Positions 39,576 through 46,150 of a stretch of DNA of 64,000 nucleotides are shown piece by piece. Position numbers and translations under genes: made by a program. Numbering within the stretch: position 1 is the first letter of the stretch; each line of letters starts with the position of its first letter. The notes beneath the pieces were generated by a model. That model had not been told where the DNA came from and did no database searches. It saw only the letters and a list, made by a program, of their open reading frames with translations. Origin of the DNA: Candidatus Bathyarchaeota archaeon (GTDB lineage Archaea; Thermoproteota; Bathyarchaeia; Bathyarchaeales; Bathycorpusculaceae); the NCBI GenBank assembly GCA_963717465.1, contig OY970340.1, positions 576,001 through 640,000 on the forward strand, in the 5' to 3' direction.

Positions 39576-40091
39576 ATGGGCAAGCAGAATACGCGGGCTA
39601 AGAAAGATCAGGAAAATTTGAAGGTTTTGTTTGCTCTGATAGCGCTTGGCGGCAAAAGCGATAGAGAGATTGCCAAGATCTTGAAAATGAGCAACGCAAC
39701 GTTGTCTAGGCGAAAAAAGAAGCTGGAGCAAGAGGGTTACATAAGGGAACACACGGTAATACCTGACTTCCACAAAATGGGACTAGAATTCATCGTATTT
39801 TCATTCGCAAAAACCACGGATGTAATAACACCAGCACAAGTTGAAGAAGCACAAAGCTTGATTAATAAACAGCCCGAAGTGCTATGCCTTCTGGAAGAGC
39901 GCAGCTTAGCAGGAACAAACTGGGTTGCCGTGTCCGTACACAAGGATTACAACAGTTACTTGGAACTATCTGAAAAATTGCAAAGAGAATCAACGTTCAG
40001 ACCAAATGTGGAAACGCACAGCTTCATGTTTTACACCGGCAAAAAGTTTCCAAAAACATTCTCACTACGAAACCTGGAAACACTATTCTAA
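39576..40091 (+). CDS. Lrp/AsnC-family transcription regulator
   Basis: SDREIAKILKMSNATLSRRKKKLEQEGYI wHTH, IPDFHKMG. Confidence 0.85.
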   Translation: MGKQNTRAKKDQENLKVLFALIALGGKSDREIAKILKMSNATLSRRKKKLEQEGYIREHTVIPDFHKMGLEFIVFSFAKTTDVITPAQVEEAQSLINKQPEVLCLLEERSLAGTNWVAVSVHKDYNSYLELSEKLQRESTFRPNVETHSFMFYTGKKFPKTFSLRNLETLF

Positions 40092-40126
40092 ATATAAAAA
40101 CTTTCTATCATTAGGTCCAATGTTAA

Positions 40127-40234
40127 TCACTGCCCGACAGCTCAGACCAGCTTAACCCAGAACTAGGCGCATGGTGCTTCAAAGCAAACCTAGCAAAAGT
40201 GTACTCAGCCAACATTGGACCAATGGGACCATAA
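40127..40234 (+). pseudogene. Orphan 3' end of a paralog of the downstream Mo/W oxidoreductase
   Basis: Reads SLPDSSDQLNPELGAWCFKANLAKVYSANIGPMGP*; 57 bp identical to 42881-42937; followed by a T-tract. Confidence 0.85.
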
Positions 40235-40632
40235 ACCGAAAATCTTTCCTTTTTCTTTCCTTTTTCCTTTTTTTAAACTCCAGACTATGCCTGTTTATGG
40301 CTATGGCTATTTTAGAAGATGAAATAACGTACTAACTCGCATGCATAAGATAGACTGAGTTCTGCAATTTCCATAATATATGTTATATAAAGTGGCAGAA
40401 ACTGCAAAGAATTTGTTTTATATAAACAGAACCTTATTAGACCTTAAACATTATTAAAGAAAATAGTTCAATTATGTAACAATGTTACGGATTAAAAGAG
40501 AAAGTGTTCTGTTTTGTCGCAAAAAGCGTAATGCGCTTATTATCTAACCTTAAATAGCCATCAAACCGCATATAGGTTATTTCGTCCTAAAAACAAAATA
40601 AAAATGGGAGATAAACAAAGATAGGAGATTGA

Positions 40633-42949
40633 ATGATGAGTGTAAAGGTTGAAGATATAAAGAAATTCGATGGACAACACAGATGCGTCTGCGGTTTCTG
40701 CAGTACTGGATCTTGTCAATTGCTTGAAATAGTTCAAGACGGTAAGATCGTTAAGGTTGAGCCTGACTGGGAAAGCCCGTTTAATCCTGGGCCGTACTGT
40801 CAGAAGTGGAAGTACAGCTTAGAATACATTTACCACAAGGACAGGCCGAAGTACCCAATGAAGCGCATTGGCAAACGCGGCGAAGGCAAATGGCAAATAA
40901 TATCCTGGGCTCAGGCATATAGCGAAATATCAGCTAAAGTGAAGGAAATCGTCGCAAAATACGGCGGCCCATCCGTATGTGGCTTCTTTGGCACAGGCCG
41001 AGCCGCAAACTTAGGTCTAGGACTGGCTATTTTCCACGTATTAATAGGCAGCCCGAACTTTGGCTCTATAGCGGCTCAGACATGAGCCGGACCCACGAAC
41101 CAAGCCTTAGGATTAGGCTATGGCGTGGGAATAACATATGCAATGATTATCCCAGGTAAGACAAAAGGTATCTTTACAATTGGCACAAACCCAAGTGAGT
41201 CATGGACGTATTCATGGCCCGCATTCATTGCAGGATTAGAAGCTGGCACAAAAATGCTCAACGTCGACCCAAGATTCACGGAGACAACCAGACATTCTGA
41301 AATGTGGTTAGCGCTTAGACCCGGAACTGACACGGCCCTACTGATGGCTATAATTAATGTCATCATAGAAGAGGATCTATACGATCATGAATTTGTGGAA
41401 AAATGGACCTTTGGATTTGACAAGCTAAAAGAAAGGGCTAAACAGTATACACCTGAAAAAGCTGCGGAAATAACATGGGTTCCAGCTGAAAAAATCAGAG
41501 AAGCAGCCCGATGGATAGTGAAAAACCAGCCATGCACATTCCCATATGGCTATGCAATCGAATCAGCAGGCAGGAATTCTCTAAGCAATGTCCGCTCCAA
41601 ATATATGCTACCTGCATTAACTGGCAACATCGACATAGAAGGCGGCGAATACCTTCACGCAAAACCGAAATTCCACTCAGTTGTTGAATCAATGCACGAC
41701 ATAGTTGCGTTAGCAGATACGGATTCAATGATGAAACAGGTAGGAATAGACAACCATAGGGCGCTAAACTTCTATATTCATCCTCTGATGCAACAGGCAA
41801 GCCGATGGAAAAGGATACTGGGGTGACACTCACTCCTCAGGATCAAGAGGTCCAAACTTCTGCAACTTTATGGATACAATGGTATCGGAGAAACCCTATC
41901 CAATCAAGGCTATGCTATCCGGTGAAGTAGGTCCAATGAGGAATTATCCAAATATAAAGAAGGTTTATGAGGGTCTCAAGAAGCTTGAACTCTTCGTGTA
42001 CATTGAAGACGCTCAAATGACTCCTGAAGCCATGCTAGCAGACTACGTACTACCTGGCACCAGCCAATTCGAAAGACCTTCCGGCTATGCAACTCTTACT
42101 GGTCAAGGCGAGATTGAATTTGAGATTGCAGGAGACCGCGCAATGGCAAGCAAGATACCTGGTCTGTGGGATCTTGAAGACGATACGATCATATTCCGAA
42201 ACCTCGCTGTCGGAGTACTTGGTAAGGAATTAGTTGATAAAGTTTGGAAATGGAAGACTCCCGAGGAATTCCAAGACTGGTTCTACGAACCCGCAGGTTG
42301 GACTCGAAAACAAGTTATTGAGGAATGGAAAGGTGTACCACCATATGAGCCCAGATTCAAGAAATACGAGGAAGTTAACCCAGAGACTGGACTGGTTAGA
42401 GGCTTTGGTACTCCTGAGGGCAAAGTTGCGTTCTACTCGACTATTCTTGAGCAGATTGAATACGATCCGTTGCCGTATTATCAGGAATGCGCTTGGACAC
42501 CAATTAGTGCACCTGATATTGCAAAAGACTACCCATTCATTATGACTAGTGGAGCCAGATTCCAAGAAGCCCACCATGGCGAACTACGACACATCAGCTT
42601 AATGCGGCATTTGCGTCCATTCCCACGTGTAAAGATGCACCCACTGACAGCACGCAACATGGGTATCGGAGACGGCGAATGGGTCTACATTGAAACACCT
42701 GTTGGCAGATGCATGCAGCAAGTACGGTACGATTTCGGAGTTAACCCAAAGGTAGTTTCTCCTGAACATGGCTGGTGGAGACCAGAATTGCCAGCTGAAG
42801 AACCAACACTGTACGGATGGACAGACTGGAACATCGACGTAACAATTCCAAACGATGATGAACAACTCAGCCCAGAACTTGGCGCATGGTGCTTCAAAGC
42901 AAACCTAGCAAAAGTGTACTCAGCCAACATTGGACCAGTAGGTCCATAA
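40633..42949 (+). CDS. Mo/W-bisPGD oxidoreductase (DMSO reductase superfamily, acetylene-hydratase-like) with in-frame UGA at 41083 (candidate Sec) and one +1 frameshift near 41800
   Basis: CGFCSTGSC...C [4Fe-4S], RPKYPMKR.GKRGEGKW, VDPRFTET, LRPGTDTAL, ADYVLP, C-terminal MPT-dinucleotide domain (HGWW). Confidence 0.9.
41092..41129 (+). promoter_or_regulatory. Candidate SECIS-like hairpin just 3' of the in-frame UGA
   Basis: CCCACG/CGTGGG, AA bulge, CCA/TGG, A bulge, AGCCT/AGGCT, loop TAGGATT. Confidence 0.6.
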
Positions 42950-42990
42950 ATTAAATTTTTCCCTTTTTGTTTTTTCTTTTTTTTCTTTTG
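42950..42990 (+). terminator. Oligo-T terminator
   Basis: Dense T-tract directly after the stop codon. Confidence 0.6.
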
Positions 42991-43276
42991 ACATAAGTTT
43001 AAGCAAAATTAAGATTACTTTGCCCAAACGCTTCTTGCCTCAGAACGTGTTTAGCCGTGATATATTTAGAGCCAGACGTAATTAGGCTTCTTTTAAGCTT
43101 CTTTAATATTATATCTTCATAATGAATATTCCAATTTGGAATTTATTTGAAGCTTTTGCAAAAATTTTTTATCAATTTTCCCATTAATTCAAACTATAGT
43201 TCTGAAATATCATGATTATAAAAACGATAAATCTTTATATAATATTTTTGACATATTAAGATAGCAGGGAAGGTAA

Positions 43277-43453
43277 ATGGTTAAGAACCTGAAAGTAGTT
43301 AGCGTCGAAACCGTCTATGAAGAAGAACATTACATTGTTCAAAGCTACAAGATTGATGAGGATAAAAATGACGCTACCGATTTTGACAAGGACGAAATAA
43401 AAGGAAACATGAAAAAAGAAGCATCTAAGCCGCTTCATTTACGTCGAATCTAA
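43277..43453 (+). CDS. Small acidic hypothetical protein (58 aa)
   Basis: GGAAGGT upstream; MVKNLKVVSVETVYEEEHYIVQSYKIDE...; below the ORF-track cutoff. Confidence 0.4.
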   Translation: MVKNLKVVSVETVYEEEHYIVQSYKIDEDKNDATDFDKDEIKGNMKKEASKPLHLRRI

Positions 43454-44202: not shown

Positions 44203-46150
44203 TCACATTTTTTCAGGAGCTGTAACGCCAATTAATGTTAAGGCATTATGAAGTACAGTTTGGATTGCTTTTGTTAAGGCTATTCTTGCGTCGCTGAGTT
44301 CTTGTGAGTCTGCTTTAATCACGGGCAATGCATTGTAGAATGTGTTGAATTTGTCGGCTAAGGCATTTACGTAATCTGCGATCATGTTGGGTTTAAGGTA
44401 TTCTGTTGCTTCAATAAACATGTCTGGGAAACCTGCCAAAGCTAAGATTAATTCTCGTTCCAGTTTTTCTTTTAGTAATTCGAATCCTGGTTTTTCGGGT
44501 TCCCGTGCTGCTTTGCGTAAGATGCTGCATGCTCTAGCGTGGGTGTATTGGACGTAGGGTGCACTGTTGGTTTCAAAGTTTAGCACTCGATCCCAAGTGA
44601 AAACCACGGATTTTGAAGCGTCCACATCCACAAGCGAATATCGTACTGCTCCGATGCCTACGAAATCTGCAATTTTGCGCTTTTCTTTCTCGGTCAGCAT
44701 TGGTGATCGCTTGGAAACTTCTTCGTAAGCCCGTTGAACCGCTTCGTCTAAAACTTGGTCGAAAGTGATGTAGTGTCCTCTGCGGCTGCTCATTTTGTAT
44801 CCTGGAAGAGTAACCAGATTATAAGCGAAATGTACAAAATTATCTGCAAAGTCACCCTTACCAAGTGCGTAAAGAGCAAGTTTTAATTGCAATTGTGCAA
44901 GCGACTGCTCCATGCCGATAACGTTGACCACTTTCTCAGCCAAATTAAACTTCCATAGCGTATAAGCTACGTCACGTGTGGTGTACAGTGTGGTGCCGTC
45001 AGCACGAACAAGCGTTAATGGCGGAACCTCATAGTTTTCATGCAGGCCCAACTTGGGTTTTAATTTAAGTTGGTTAACAGCTTTTTCGCCGTCAAACTCT
45101 AAAACTCCACTTTCACTGAAAACGTAGCCTGAAGCTTTGAGTTTCCGTAAAACCTCAGATACTTGGCTGCTCCAGACGAAATCGCTCTCCCAATCCCAAG
45201 AATCATATGTAACTGACACACGTTTTTGCGTTTCTCTGAAACCGTCAAGACATAATTCGCTGACTTCCCGAATTAGCTGTTTTGCTTTAGGTTCACCTTC
45301 TTCGTATGCACGATTTAACCGGTTAATTTCCTCTTCAGGATTTTCATCTTTGCTAACCTGCATCAGAAGCGTTTCAAAAAGCACAGGGTATTTTTCTTTC
45401 AATTCGGAGGCGATGGAAAGCCACTCGTCAATTTCCTTATTTACTTTAGCTAAATCGTCCGCAGAATCTGGGTCAATTGCTTGGCGAACTCTTTTTAAAC
45501 GGTTGATTTCAACGATGCAACATGTAACCGTGTAGATTTTGCCAACGAACAAGTCGGCTTTTTCAGTGGGTTTTGGTCGACCAAGTTTGTCATAACCGTA
45601 GGCGACAACGCTGGATTGGCGACCAACATCATCAATGTAGTAGTGAGTTGAAACCGTGTGCCCCCTACATCTGAGAATGCGTGCTAAGGCATCTCCAAGC
45701 ATCGGGATTTCTTGCTTGTCCAATATGAATAGGATGCAGAGGATTAACACTTGTATGTTCGACGATGATTTTTTTAGGCTTATCGGTTTTAACGAAACCG
45801 TAGTTAGAATTCAACTGCTTAACTGAATTCAAAGTTAAAGCGGAGAATTTGGTAAAATCAACATAAAAGTTGATGTATCCTGCACCGGCAGTAGCAACTT
45901 TTTCAATTAATTTAAAGCTGGATTTATCGATGTTATCGACAAGTTGGTTAGCAATATCAAGAGGCTTTTGCCCCAGTTTCTTAGCTAACTCAAAGCAAAG
46001 TGAAGAAGCCAATTGTCCATACTCAATGTTTGGCGTCTTGCTCAAGTTTATGGTTGTATGCTTGGTTTCTGGAAAGGACTTTTCTAAAGCTTGAGCTAAT
46101 GCTGCTTCGCATTCTTGGCGGAACAGGGCAAAGGGGTTTTCAGTAGTCAT
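44203..46150 (-). CDS. argS: Arginyl-tRNA synthetase, frameshift near 45705
   Basis: EHTSVNPLHPIHIGQARN, KMSSRRG, PYVQYTHARACSIL. Confidence 0.95.

Follow-up and report, generated by a model that had tools for sequence, protein, structure and literature searches.

A hairpin directly behind predicted selenocysteine codons of a bathyarchaeal genome as a candidate in-coding recoding signal

Which signal could direct an archaeal ribosome to read an internal UGA as selenocysteine (Sec), and could a hairpin inside the reading frame, directly behind that codon, be this signal? The question is raised by a molybdopterin oxidoreductase gene in a 64,000-nt stretch of DNA (the window) from a Candidatus Bathyarchaeota archaeon (GCA_963717465.1, contig OY970340.1, positions 576,001 to 640,000). 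According to the relevant passages of reviews published until 2026, the SECIS elements of archaea are located in untranslated regions (UTRs), Sec use among archaea is restricted to Methanococcales, Methanopyrales and Asgard archaea, and a SECIS-binding factor is not known from archaea (PMC13188914, PMC9499178, PMC8211752). No description of an in-coding Sec element in archaea was found in the literature searched, which consisted mostly of papers available without subscription (including the accessible parts of PMC11431864, PMC3541580 and PMC5424206), and 'Bathy' is mentioned neither in PMC11227280 nor in the accessible part of PMC13188914.

The in-frame UGA and its hairpin

The features of the locus to which the text refers are as follows.

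40141..40275, + strand: orphan copy of the 3′ end of a paralog (last ~30 codons, stop and T-tract), compared directly with 42861-43010
40633..42949, + strand: MopB gene, encoding a DMSO-reductase/MopB superfamily molybdopterin oxidoreductase of about 772 aa if intact; L017 is an intact paralog
41083..41085, + strand: in-frame UGA, residue 151, predicted selenocysteine at a metal-ligand Cys position
41086..41091, + strand: unpaired 6-nt spacer GCCGGA, from folding (6-7 nt in MopB, HdrA, MvhD and a secreted family)
41092..41129, + strand: bulged hairpin of 14 bp, a predicted recoding element within the coding sequence (folding, paralogs, environmental contigs)
41108..41114, + strand: apical loop UAGGAUU, +23..+29, with G at loop position 3 only, unless a U.U pair closes the loop
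41806..41806, + strand: extra base causing a frameshift, not present in 4 contigs from 3 runs
42950..42991, + strand: oligo-T tract right after the stop, a putative archaeal-type terminator; no structured 3′ element was seen here

The open reading frame that starts with the ATG at 40633 extends for 150 codons to the TGA (41083-41085) and stays open for 246 further codons. The gene ends with TAA (42947-42949) and passes directly into the T-rich tract, as an earlier note on this DNA, made from the sequence alone, had stated; no hairpin-type terminator was found within 40100-43300. In the assembly the gene is frameshifted near 41806, as judged by comparison with the frame of L017. The extra base at this position is missing from all four related contigs listed (three runs; depth_with equal to depth) and is therefore probably a sequencing or assembly error; argS, also within the window, is likewise split, which makes a long-read error likely at 41806. 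The orphan copy upstream of the gene we infer to be a relic of duplication.

Both halves of the gene match MopB-family models. The closest solved structure is that of acetylene hydratase (2e7z; residues 18-763, E 1.6e-104), and the UGA aligns with the Cys of its 'MCIG' motif, which we take to be a metal ligand. The column of acetylene hydratase Asp13, a residue next to the Fe-S motif and presumably catalytic, is occupied by Ser in the MopB protein. The homolog comparison included 121 sequences besides the query, 10 of which, owing to split gene calls, begin downstream of the site; Cys was found at the UGA column in 108 of the remaining 111. The genome contains 11 MopB paralogs with TGA at the ligand position, and these Mo/W enzymes appear in databases as fragments of ~600 aa. 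It is likely, on the evidence of these alignments, that the UGA at 41083-41085 encodes Sec. General reassignment of UGA was ruled out, since TGA terminates 471 of 1797 long ORFs in the genome; a signal that discriminates Sec codons from stops is therefore needed.

The predicted stem spans +7 (41092) to +44 (41129) and comprises 6+3+5 = 14 bp, with an AA bulge on the 5′ arm and an A bulge on the 3′ arm. When +1..+50 is folded, the hairpin has an MFE of -19.9 kcal/mol and accounts for 78% of the ensemble; its position, pairing, bulges and loop are exactly those first described (z -4.34; 0/200 dinucleotide shuffles equally stable). The protein-preserving null is weaker, with z -2.4 and 21/1000 sequences equally stable when the codon usage of the genome is applied, and 42/1000 with uniform synonymous codons. 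Much of the stability at this particular site is thus explained by the protein sequence alone (21/1000). Among the rows listed for 43 environmental contigs on 41030-41190, no change occurs at the TGA or in the lower-stem arms; differences are seen in the bulge and in the loop, and four upper-stem bases are altered in one divergent contig.

The earlier note had also seen in the GAA of the 5′ arm an echo of the methanococcal GAA/A motif. This resemblance did not hold up: the G is paired, no A lies opposite the bulge, three S-S pairs are absent above it (the pairs there are C-G, C-G and A-U), GAA is present in only 3 of the 11 paralogs, and position 41098 varies in environmental contigs. No Rfam SECIS family matched 40200-43400 or six other loci at E <= 10.

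Hairpins at the other predicted Sec codons

All 11 UGA paralogs of the MopB family keep the hairpin and fold at -16.0 to -22.2, versus -7.9 and -10.8 for the two Cys paralogs, -8.4 for the Asn paralog, and -4.1 to -17.0 for archaeal Cys rows (24, with some loci repeated). The alignment of the 11 paralogs contains 14 pairs, with 89% of cells paired (slid controls, 23-47%) and five pairs changed on both sides (1/500 shuffles), so that the comparison of covariation and of UGA with Cys homologs proposed for this hairpin came out in its favor. What looked like compensation in the most divergent paralog proved to be a one-base register shift, with three unpaired cells, and was rejected. For the eight close MopB paralogs the synonymous null gave only z -1.5 to -2.4; a scan of the eight intact paralogs placed the peak of synonymous identity on the hairpin (best of 726 windows). 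Three frameshifted paralogs were left out of this full-length scan and of the tree described below.

A sharper separation of UGA from Cys genes was observed for HdrA and MvhD, whose relatives were drawn from genomes with SepSecS (present in 12 of 401 genomes of the class); identical 48-mers were counted once in the HdrA, MvhD and SelD folding comparison. The 14 distinct HdrA-TGA 48-mers have folding energies between -20.7 and -27.7, and their stem starts at +7 in 11 and at +8 in three; the 27 HdrA-Cys sequences have energies of -3.1 to -14.1 and no +7 stem. In MvhD the stem is present in 12/12 TGA sequences (-22.3 to -23.5) vs 0/17 Cys sequences, and the +7 stem is absent from all 44 Cys hdrA/mvhD sequences. 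Against the synonymous null, HdrA has z -6.2. It shows no compensatory pairs, because HdrA is too invariant to covary (one sequence with an indel, L227, was left out of the alignment, A4). The two-Sec hdrA-mvhD gene carries a separate hairpin for each UGA, and these two are the best and second-best non-overlapping of 776 synonymous-identity windows (6 genomes). A +7 stem of <= -16 follows only 2 of the 471 ORF-ending TGAs of the genome, and the coordinates of these two are those of the Sec codons in hdrA and mvhD; such a stem also follows 2 of 2000 Cys codons.

The element takes another form in selD. Eight of 13 SelD-TGA sequences fold into a single rod that extends from +10 to +96 (~87 nt, 94% paired), separated from the UGA by 9 nt, with z -4.0 to -5.5 for the three tested; the other five form short hairpins from about +7/+8 (four) or a multibranch structure from +8 (one). 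The view of selD as an unstructured exception (z -0.4 at 48 nt) was abandoned, since longer folding gave the rod. Only two compensatory pairs were found in the rod (49/500 shuffles). In Cys selD, relics are 73% paired vs 94% in the TGA rods, the base of the rod is retained (P >= 0.92) in 3 of 28, and some sequences reach -19.6 within 48 nt. Synonymous identity at the hairpin is 0.90 in selD-TGA (n=3; gene mean 0.45) vs 0.47 at the same region in selD-Cys (n=4; gene mean 0.51). The five non-rod TGA genes were left out of alignment A2 and the divergent Cys gene L212 out of A3.

Two further candidate Sec families, UGSC and an unnamed secreted family, were found beside Sec clusters of distant relatives. 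UGSC (PF24696) has TGA in three of four matches, two of which have the hairpin; the gene of G037 lacks it (-9.6, 123/300 nulls). The secreted Ig-like family has TGA in 8/8 matches (5/16 genomes), each with a stem from about +8, in which 7 of 11 pairs are compensatory (0/500 shuffles; slid controls 0-2). The assignment of Sec to this family is less sure, because the only full-length homolog in the database carries Leu instead of Cys where the UGA lies.

A gene for a URO-D-like methyltransferase (C1:2822990-2824225, minus strand) contains two TGAs. Homologs, which were missed by word search, were found by HMMER: the first TGA aligns with Cys in 14/14 of them, and the second lies one column off a Cys conserved in 14/14. 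Site 1 gave no +7 stem, whichever length between 48 and 141 nt was folded. At site 2 a +7 hairpin of modest stability is predicted (-17.9; z -0.9 against the dinucleotide null; 8/300 in the synonymous null). The gene lies ~3 kb from a second PSTK-SelB, whose G-motif is GHCKHGKT, and a second tRNA-Sec, and may for this reason use a separate decoding route. Coding-potential screens recovered the known sites and one methyltransferase site, and failed to detect one of the MopB paralogs and the remaining site of the methyltransferase; the list of selenoproteins is therefore incomplete.

Taken together, a stem begins 6-7 nt after nearly every predicted Sec UGA across six unrelated families (9 nt for the selD rod); it has been lost or has decayed in the genes with Cys, and is maintained under both compensatory and synonymous constraint. 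Most weight is placed on the six unrelated peptides with one geometry, because kin and paralogs are not independent. The predicted Sec codons without the element are two, namely methyltransferase site 1 and the UGSC gene of G037. The hairpin is a real, selected RNA element. That it has some other task (protection of the mRNA, or a pause or decay that depends on selenium), or arises as a side effect of the conserved peptide behind the ligand, appears very improbable: the low synonymous z values of the close MopB paralogs and the relics in Cys selD would suit such an origin, but unrelated peptides give the stem at a near-equal distance, compensatory changes occur in both MopB and the secreted family, and the stem is missing from every Cys hdrA/mvhD gene, with HdrA far beyond its synonymous null.

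We also asked where the Sec genes of the MopB family came from. Neither the Sec clade nor a TGA ortholog was found in 11 Sec-using relatives or in 331 further genomes from the same family, for each of which at most three candidates were scored; one candidate, in G585, was rejected, as its TGA lies off the ligand site. TGA occurs at the site in 0/79 bacterial homolog loci. In a FastTree tree (70 rows, midpoint-rooted), the eight intact Sec paralogs cluster with six truncated products that come from other assemblies (support 99), and the sister of this group, P0013, has Cys. This topology fits a local Cys-to-Sec change in the MopB clade, followed by amplification. The earlier note had offered as an alternative the acquisition of a bacterial selenoprotein gene together with its SECIS, which would then have been amplified. 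The absence of the Sec clade from the relatives searched and the bacterial names borne by many homologs speak for such a transfer, but it is hardly credible in view of the Cys in the nearest full-length relative, the lack of TGA in the bacterial loci, the same arrangement in native archaeal genes (hdrA, mvhD and selD), and the failure to find a bacterial-type winged-helix SelB reader, described in the next section.

Decoding machinery, distal elements and a possible mechanism

The host genome (3.05 Mb, 88% complete) encodes SepSecS, SelD (itself with a TGA), two tRNA-Sec and two PSTK-aSelB fusions; the tRNA-Sec carries a U6:U67 mismatch (t.t pair). Neither SelA (PF03841) nor the winged-helix domains of bacterial SelB (PF09106/PF09107) were matched in this 88%-complete genome, and the E. 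coli controls scored. The SelB half of the fusion aligns end to end (3-454) with methanococcal SelB (4AC9), whereas its alignment with bacterial SelB stops at residue 262-302. A metagenome scan for the fusion returned one locus. PMC8211752, in the part concerned, reports a lack of SECIS RNA binding by methanococcal aSelB. The bacterial SECIS-binding C-terminal domain, whose presence in the host SelB the earlier note had proposed to check, was not found, and its suggestion of an archaeon with bacterial-style or hybrid recoding stands in part. The bacterial position of the element is borne out by its tracking of UGA vs Cys, its covariation and the failure to find a UTR SECIS; bacterial-style machinery (SelA, winged-helix domain) was not found. 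The label 'hybrid' fits, because the Sec machinery is archaeal (SepSecS, PSTK-aSelB).

A distal element was sought around 13 genes. In this genome, the sequence becomes T-rich at the 3′ ends of the 11 MopB copies and of hdrA. A home-made eaSECIS-like GAA_A pattern, run without a positive control, matched 0/13 3′ and 0/13 5′ regions, and a home-made pattern of AUGA/GA with apical AA, not validated on true positives, matched 0/13 3′ regions; the AUGA/GA eSECIS-like pattern gave one weak 5′ match (-6.9) among 13 regions (control rates 0.25% for GAA_A and 2.75% for AUGA/GA, of 400). Hence a canonical UTR SECIS, which the earlier note had named as evidence against its proposal, did not appear within the reach of these patterns. 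The k-mers common to the flanks of the 13 genes did not go beyond T-tracts and promoter/RBS words, and no stronger synonymous peak was found elsewhere in hdrA-mvhD or MopB. A conserved 3′ segment was observed downstream of hdrA in 5 of 8 genomes.

We consider it fairly probable, judging from the sequence comparisons, that the hairpin is the primary local in-coding signal for Sec at these UGA codons, served by the archaeal machinery and with no need of a UTR SECIS. When a UGA occupies the A site, a helix that begins at +7 would be located where the mRNA enters its channel. The stem would pause the ribosome at this point; the paused ribosome could hold off aRF1 or slow release, and PSTK-aSelB:GTP:Sec-tRNA might then decode the UGA. 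Recognition would probably be mostly by position and helix and not by loop sequence, because loops differ between families and stems range from about 27 to 87 nt; direct contact of the hairpin with domain IV of aSelB or with an adaptor is possible.

A different division of labor, which we regard as unlikely, is that the hairpin acts as a helper of the SRE type (selenocysteine redefinition element), lowering termination, while an unrecognised distal SECIS recruits PSTK-aSelB, as in eukaryotes. The archaeal/eukaryotic type of the machinery is consistent with this arrangement, as are the lack of a common loop motif, the two UGAs without a hairpin and the segment conserved 3′ of hdrA; according to the parts consulted of PMC4561486 and PMC8704476, the place of an SRE is directly behind the Sec UGA, and its role is limited to assisting a UTR SECIS. 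However, the 3′ ends here enter oligo-T directly, the 13 genes share no k-mer or known SECIS pattern, and no synonymous peak in hdrA-mvhD or MopB exceeds that of the hairpin; moreover, SREs occur in a subset of eukaryotic genes, while here there is one element per UGA at nearly all Sec codons examined.

The loops bear on another possibility, that of a sequence-specific SECIS of the bacterial type, with the loop G bound by an unrecognised adaptor or by a PSTK-aSelB domain that replaces the winged helix. No loop motif is common to all families. The loops start at +19 to +25, within the bacterial range of 16-37 nt (consensus as given in the section consulted of PMC13188914), G occupies loop position 1-2 in 37 of 50 hairpins, and some unpaired synonymous loop bases are conserved. 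Yet this G is found in 35/39 hairpins of the other families and in only 2/11 of MopB (9 of 11 MopB loops break the rule), the loop of the selD rod is >50 nt away, PF09106/PF09107 have no match in the genome and domain IV is methanococcal-like; we therefore judge loop-specific recognition to be quite improbable.

Returning to the hairpin as the primary local signal, a bolder form of this reading is put forward tentatively, as somewhat more doubtful than probable. In it, Bathyarchaeia would possess a further mode of Sec decoding, with no signal other than a hairpin at the mRNA entry channel that is locked in position and largely free in sequence, and the fused kinase-elongation factor would read this hairpin without a SECIS-binding protein or UTR element. 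If true, it would connect bacterial SECIS with eukaryotic SREs as a living intermediate, and, as such a hairpin evolves easily, it would have let the lineage invent selenoproteins: (i) 11 Mo/W enzymes in one genome, (ii) a secreted Ig-like family and (iii) a two-Sec cobalamin methyltransferase, which adjoins a second, GTPase-degenerate PSTK-SelB/tRNA-Sec cassette.

An archaeon that combines eukaryote-type machinery with a signal in the bacterial position would break the usual pairing of the two. It would also provide a testable model for the descent of SREs from bacterial SECIS discussed in PMC4561486 (part consulted). How aSelB reaches the UGA could be tested with the 45-nt element in an existing Methanococcus reporter (PMC9622424). 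The rule 'UGA + stem at +7/+8' may predict archaeal selenoproteins that are split by gene callers.

Comparison with known systems

The PSTK-aSelB Sec system of Bathyarchaeota was described by Mukai et al. 2022 (PMC8762117), and the fusion, the U6:U67 mismatch and the lineage are all the same here; in the parts accessible, the text and text supplement of that paper never mention 'SECIS', and it is the cis signal that is added by the present analysis. As to the lineage, a genome of the same family encodes a protein whose distance from one named Candidatus Bathyarchaeia is zero. As regards the protein, acetylene hydratase (PDB 2e7z) is the best solved-structure match and the UGA falls on its ligand Cys; the MopB enzyme differs in its predicted Sec ligand, in Ser for Asp13 and in the presence of 11 copies in one genome.

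The hairpin resembles the bacterial SECIS (bSECIS, E. coli fdhF type) in being a coding-region stem-loop immediately 3′ of the UGA, one per UGA, with a small apical loop 16-37 nt away and a sequence that varies between genes. The consensus of Zhang and Gladyshev, as given in section 5 of PMC13188914 (accessible part), sets a loop of 3-9 nt, a distance of 16-37 nt from the UGA and an MFE <= -7.5; the values here are 7 nt, +23 and -19.9. It further has G in the first two loop positions, whereas the loop G of the window lies at position 3 (and would fall within the first two only if the U.U pairs). Other differences are the archaeal host with SepSecS/PSTK, in which SelA and a winged-helix SelB domain IV were not found, a stem base nearly fixed at +7/+8, and the ~87-nt rod of selD.

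Like the eukaryotic SREs (SELENON, SPS2) and HREs, as these are described in the parts consulted of PMC4561486 and PMC8704476, the element is a stem-loop within the coding sequence that follows a Sec UGA by a few nt, and the machinery is likewise of the SepSecS/PSTK/EFSec type. It differs from them in that SREs assist a 3′-UTR SECIS in a subset of genes, while here a UTR SECIS was not found by the home-made patterns. SREs were proposed as descendants of bSECIS by Mariotti et al. 2015 (PMC4561486, part consulted).

The GAA_A SECIS of Euryarchaeota and the eSECIS-like elements of Asgard archaea also belong to archaeal hosts with aSelB, and the core selenoproteins are the same (SelD, HdrA and MvhD/VhuD). 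According to the accessible parts of PMC13188914, PMC11227280, PMC4989117 and PMC9622424, their location is the UTR, from which they act at a distance, and one element can serve two UGAs; bacterial SECIS models had no match in the genes of Loki (PMC4989117). The present element lies in the coding region and lacks the GAA_A bulge with three S-S pairs, and the Asgard/eukaryote-like AUGA/GA core occurs in 0/13 3′ regions (by a pattern not validated on true positives). The hairpin lacks defining features of each of bSECIS, eaSECIS and eSECIS; on the favored reading it belongs neither to the bSECIS nor to the SREs, being bSECIS-like by its position, and SRE-like by its geometry and by the machinery that accompanies it.

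A two-TGA methyltransferase and a secreted Ig-like family

The source genome encodes a candidate new selenoprotein with two Sec residues, a URO-D/MtaA-like methyltransferase whose operon partners encode a corrinoid protein and an activator of the RACo type.

L247:4991-6226 (contig C1 of the source genome, 2822990-2824225), minus strand: methyltransferase gene with two in-frame TGAs, each at or next to a conserved Cys position (the first TGA aligns with Cys; the second lies one column from a conserved Cys)

A second, GTPase-degenerate PSTK-SelB (the fused kinase-elongation factor of Sec decoding) and a second tRNA-Sec are encoded approximately 3 kb away, and perhaps the methyltransferase has its own decoding cassette.

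An in-frame TGA was also found in an unnamed family of secreted Ig-like proteins.

L252-L259 and L240 (genomes G617, G220, G110, G525 and G103): secreted Ig-like protein genes with in-frame TGA

The TGA is present in all eight matches of this family, in the context CU, UxxC or UxC, and is followed from position +8 by a covarying predicted hairpin. Fifteen of the 16 database homologs span only the region downstream of the TGA; the sole full-length homolog carries Leu at this site.

UGSC and selD genes

Three genes of the UGSC family (PF24696), all from Bathyarchaeia, contain a TGA and adjoin a Sec cluster.

L243:305-1927, minus strand: UGSC gene of G531
L244:2325-3968: UGSC gene of G567
L248: UGSC gene of G037, a genome of a distant family

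UGSC is counted among predicted prokaryotic selenoproteins, and is absent from the archaeal families named in section 10 of the same source (PMC13188914). Both predicted Sec genes seen in G037 are deviant: its selD (L023) folds into a multibranch structure and its UGSC gene (L248) has no hairpin. A different element may be in use in this genome.

Folding of the selD genes with TGA predicted a rod of approximately 87 nt, starting at +10.

L010:1531-1644 (contig C1 of the source genome, 951702 onward): selD with TGA

Across the genus, Cys is what the majority of selD genes encode, often in genomes without a SepSecS match, and these Cys genes retain decaying relics of the rod.

Surroundings of the MopB gene

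Three features lie near the molybdopterin oxidoreductase (MopB) gene.

Window 39576-40091: gene for a helix-turn-helix regulator, which on visual inspection resembles Lrp/AsnC
Window 40141-40275, just upstream of the MopB gene: orphan copy of a MopB paralog's 3′ end, covering its final ~30 codons, stop codon and T-tract
Window 44203-46150: argS, frameshifted

The MopB paralog L017 is flanked by a gene resembling this regulator. The frameshifts in argS and in three of the 11 MopB paralogs (the window gene, at 41806, and the source-genome paralogs located at C1:132694 and 2799134) point to indel errors in the assembly.

The hdrA-mvhD gene

A segment of approximately 60 nt located 3′ of the hdrA-mvhD stop is alike in five of the eight genomes compared (L034, L035, L036, L039 and L040) and missing from the source genome, G217 and G229.

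L015:8392-8442, minus strand: mvhD hairpin with a conserved tandem GA/GA internal loop

Such a loop was not seen in the hairpins of the other families; it recalls the core of the eukaryotic SECIS.
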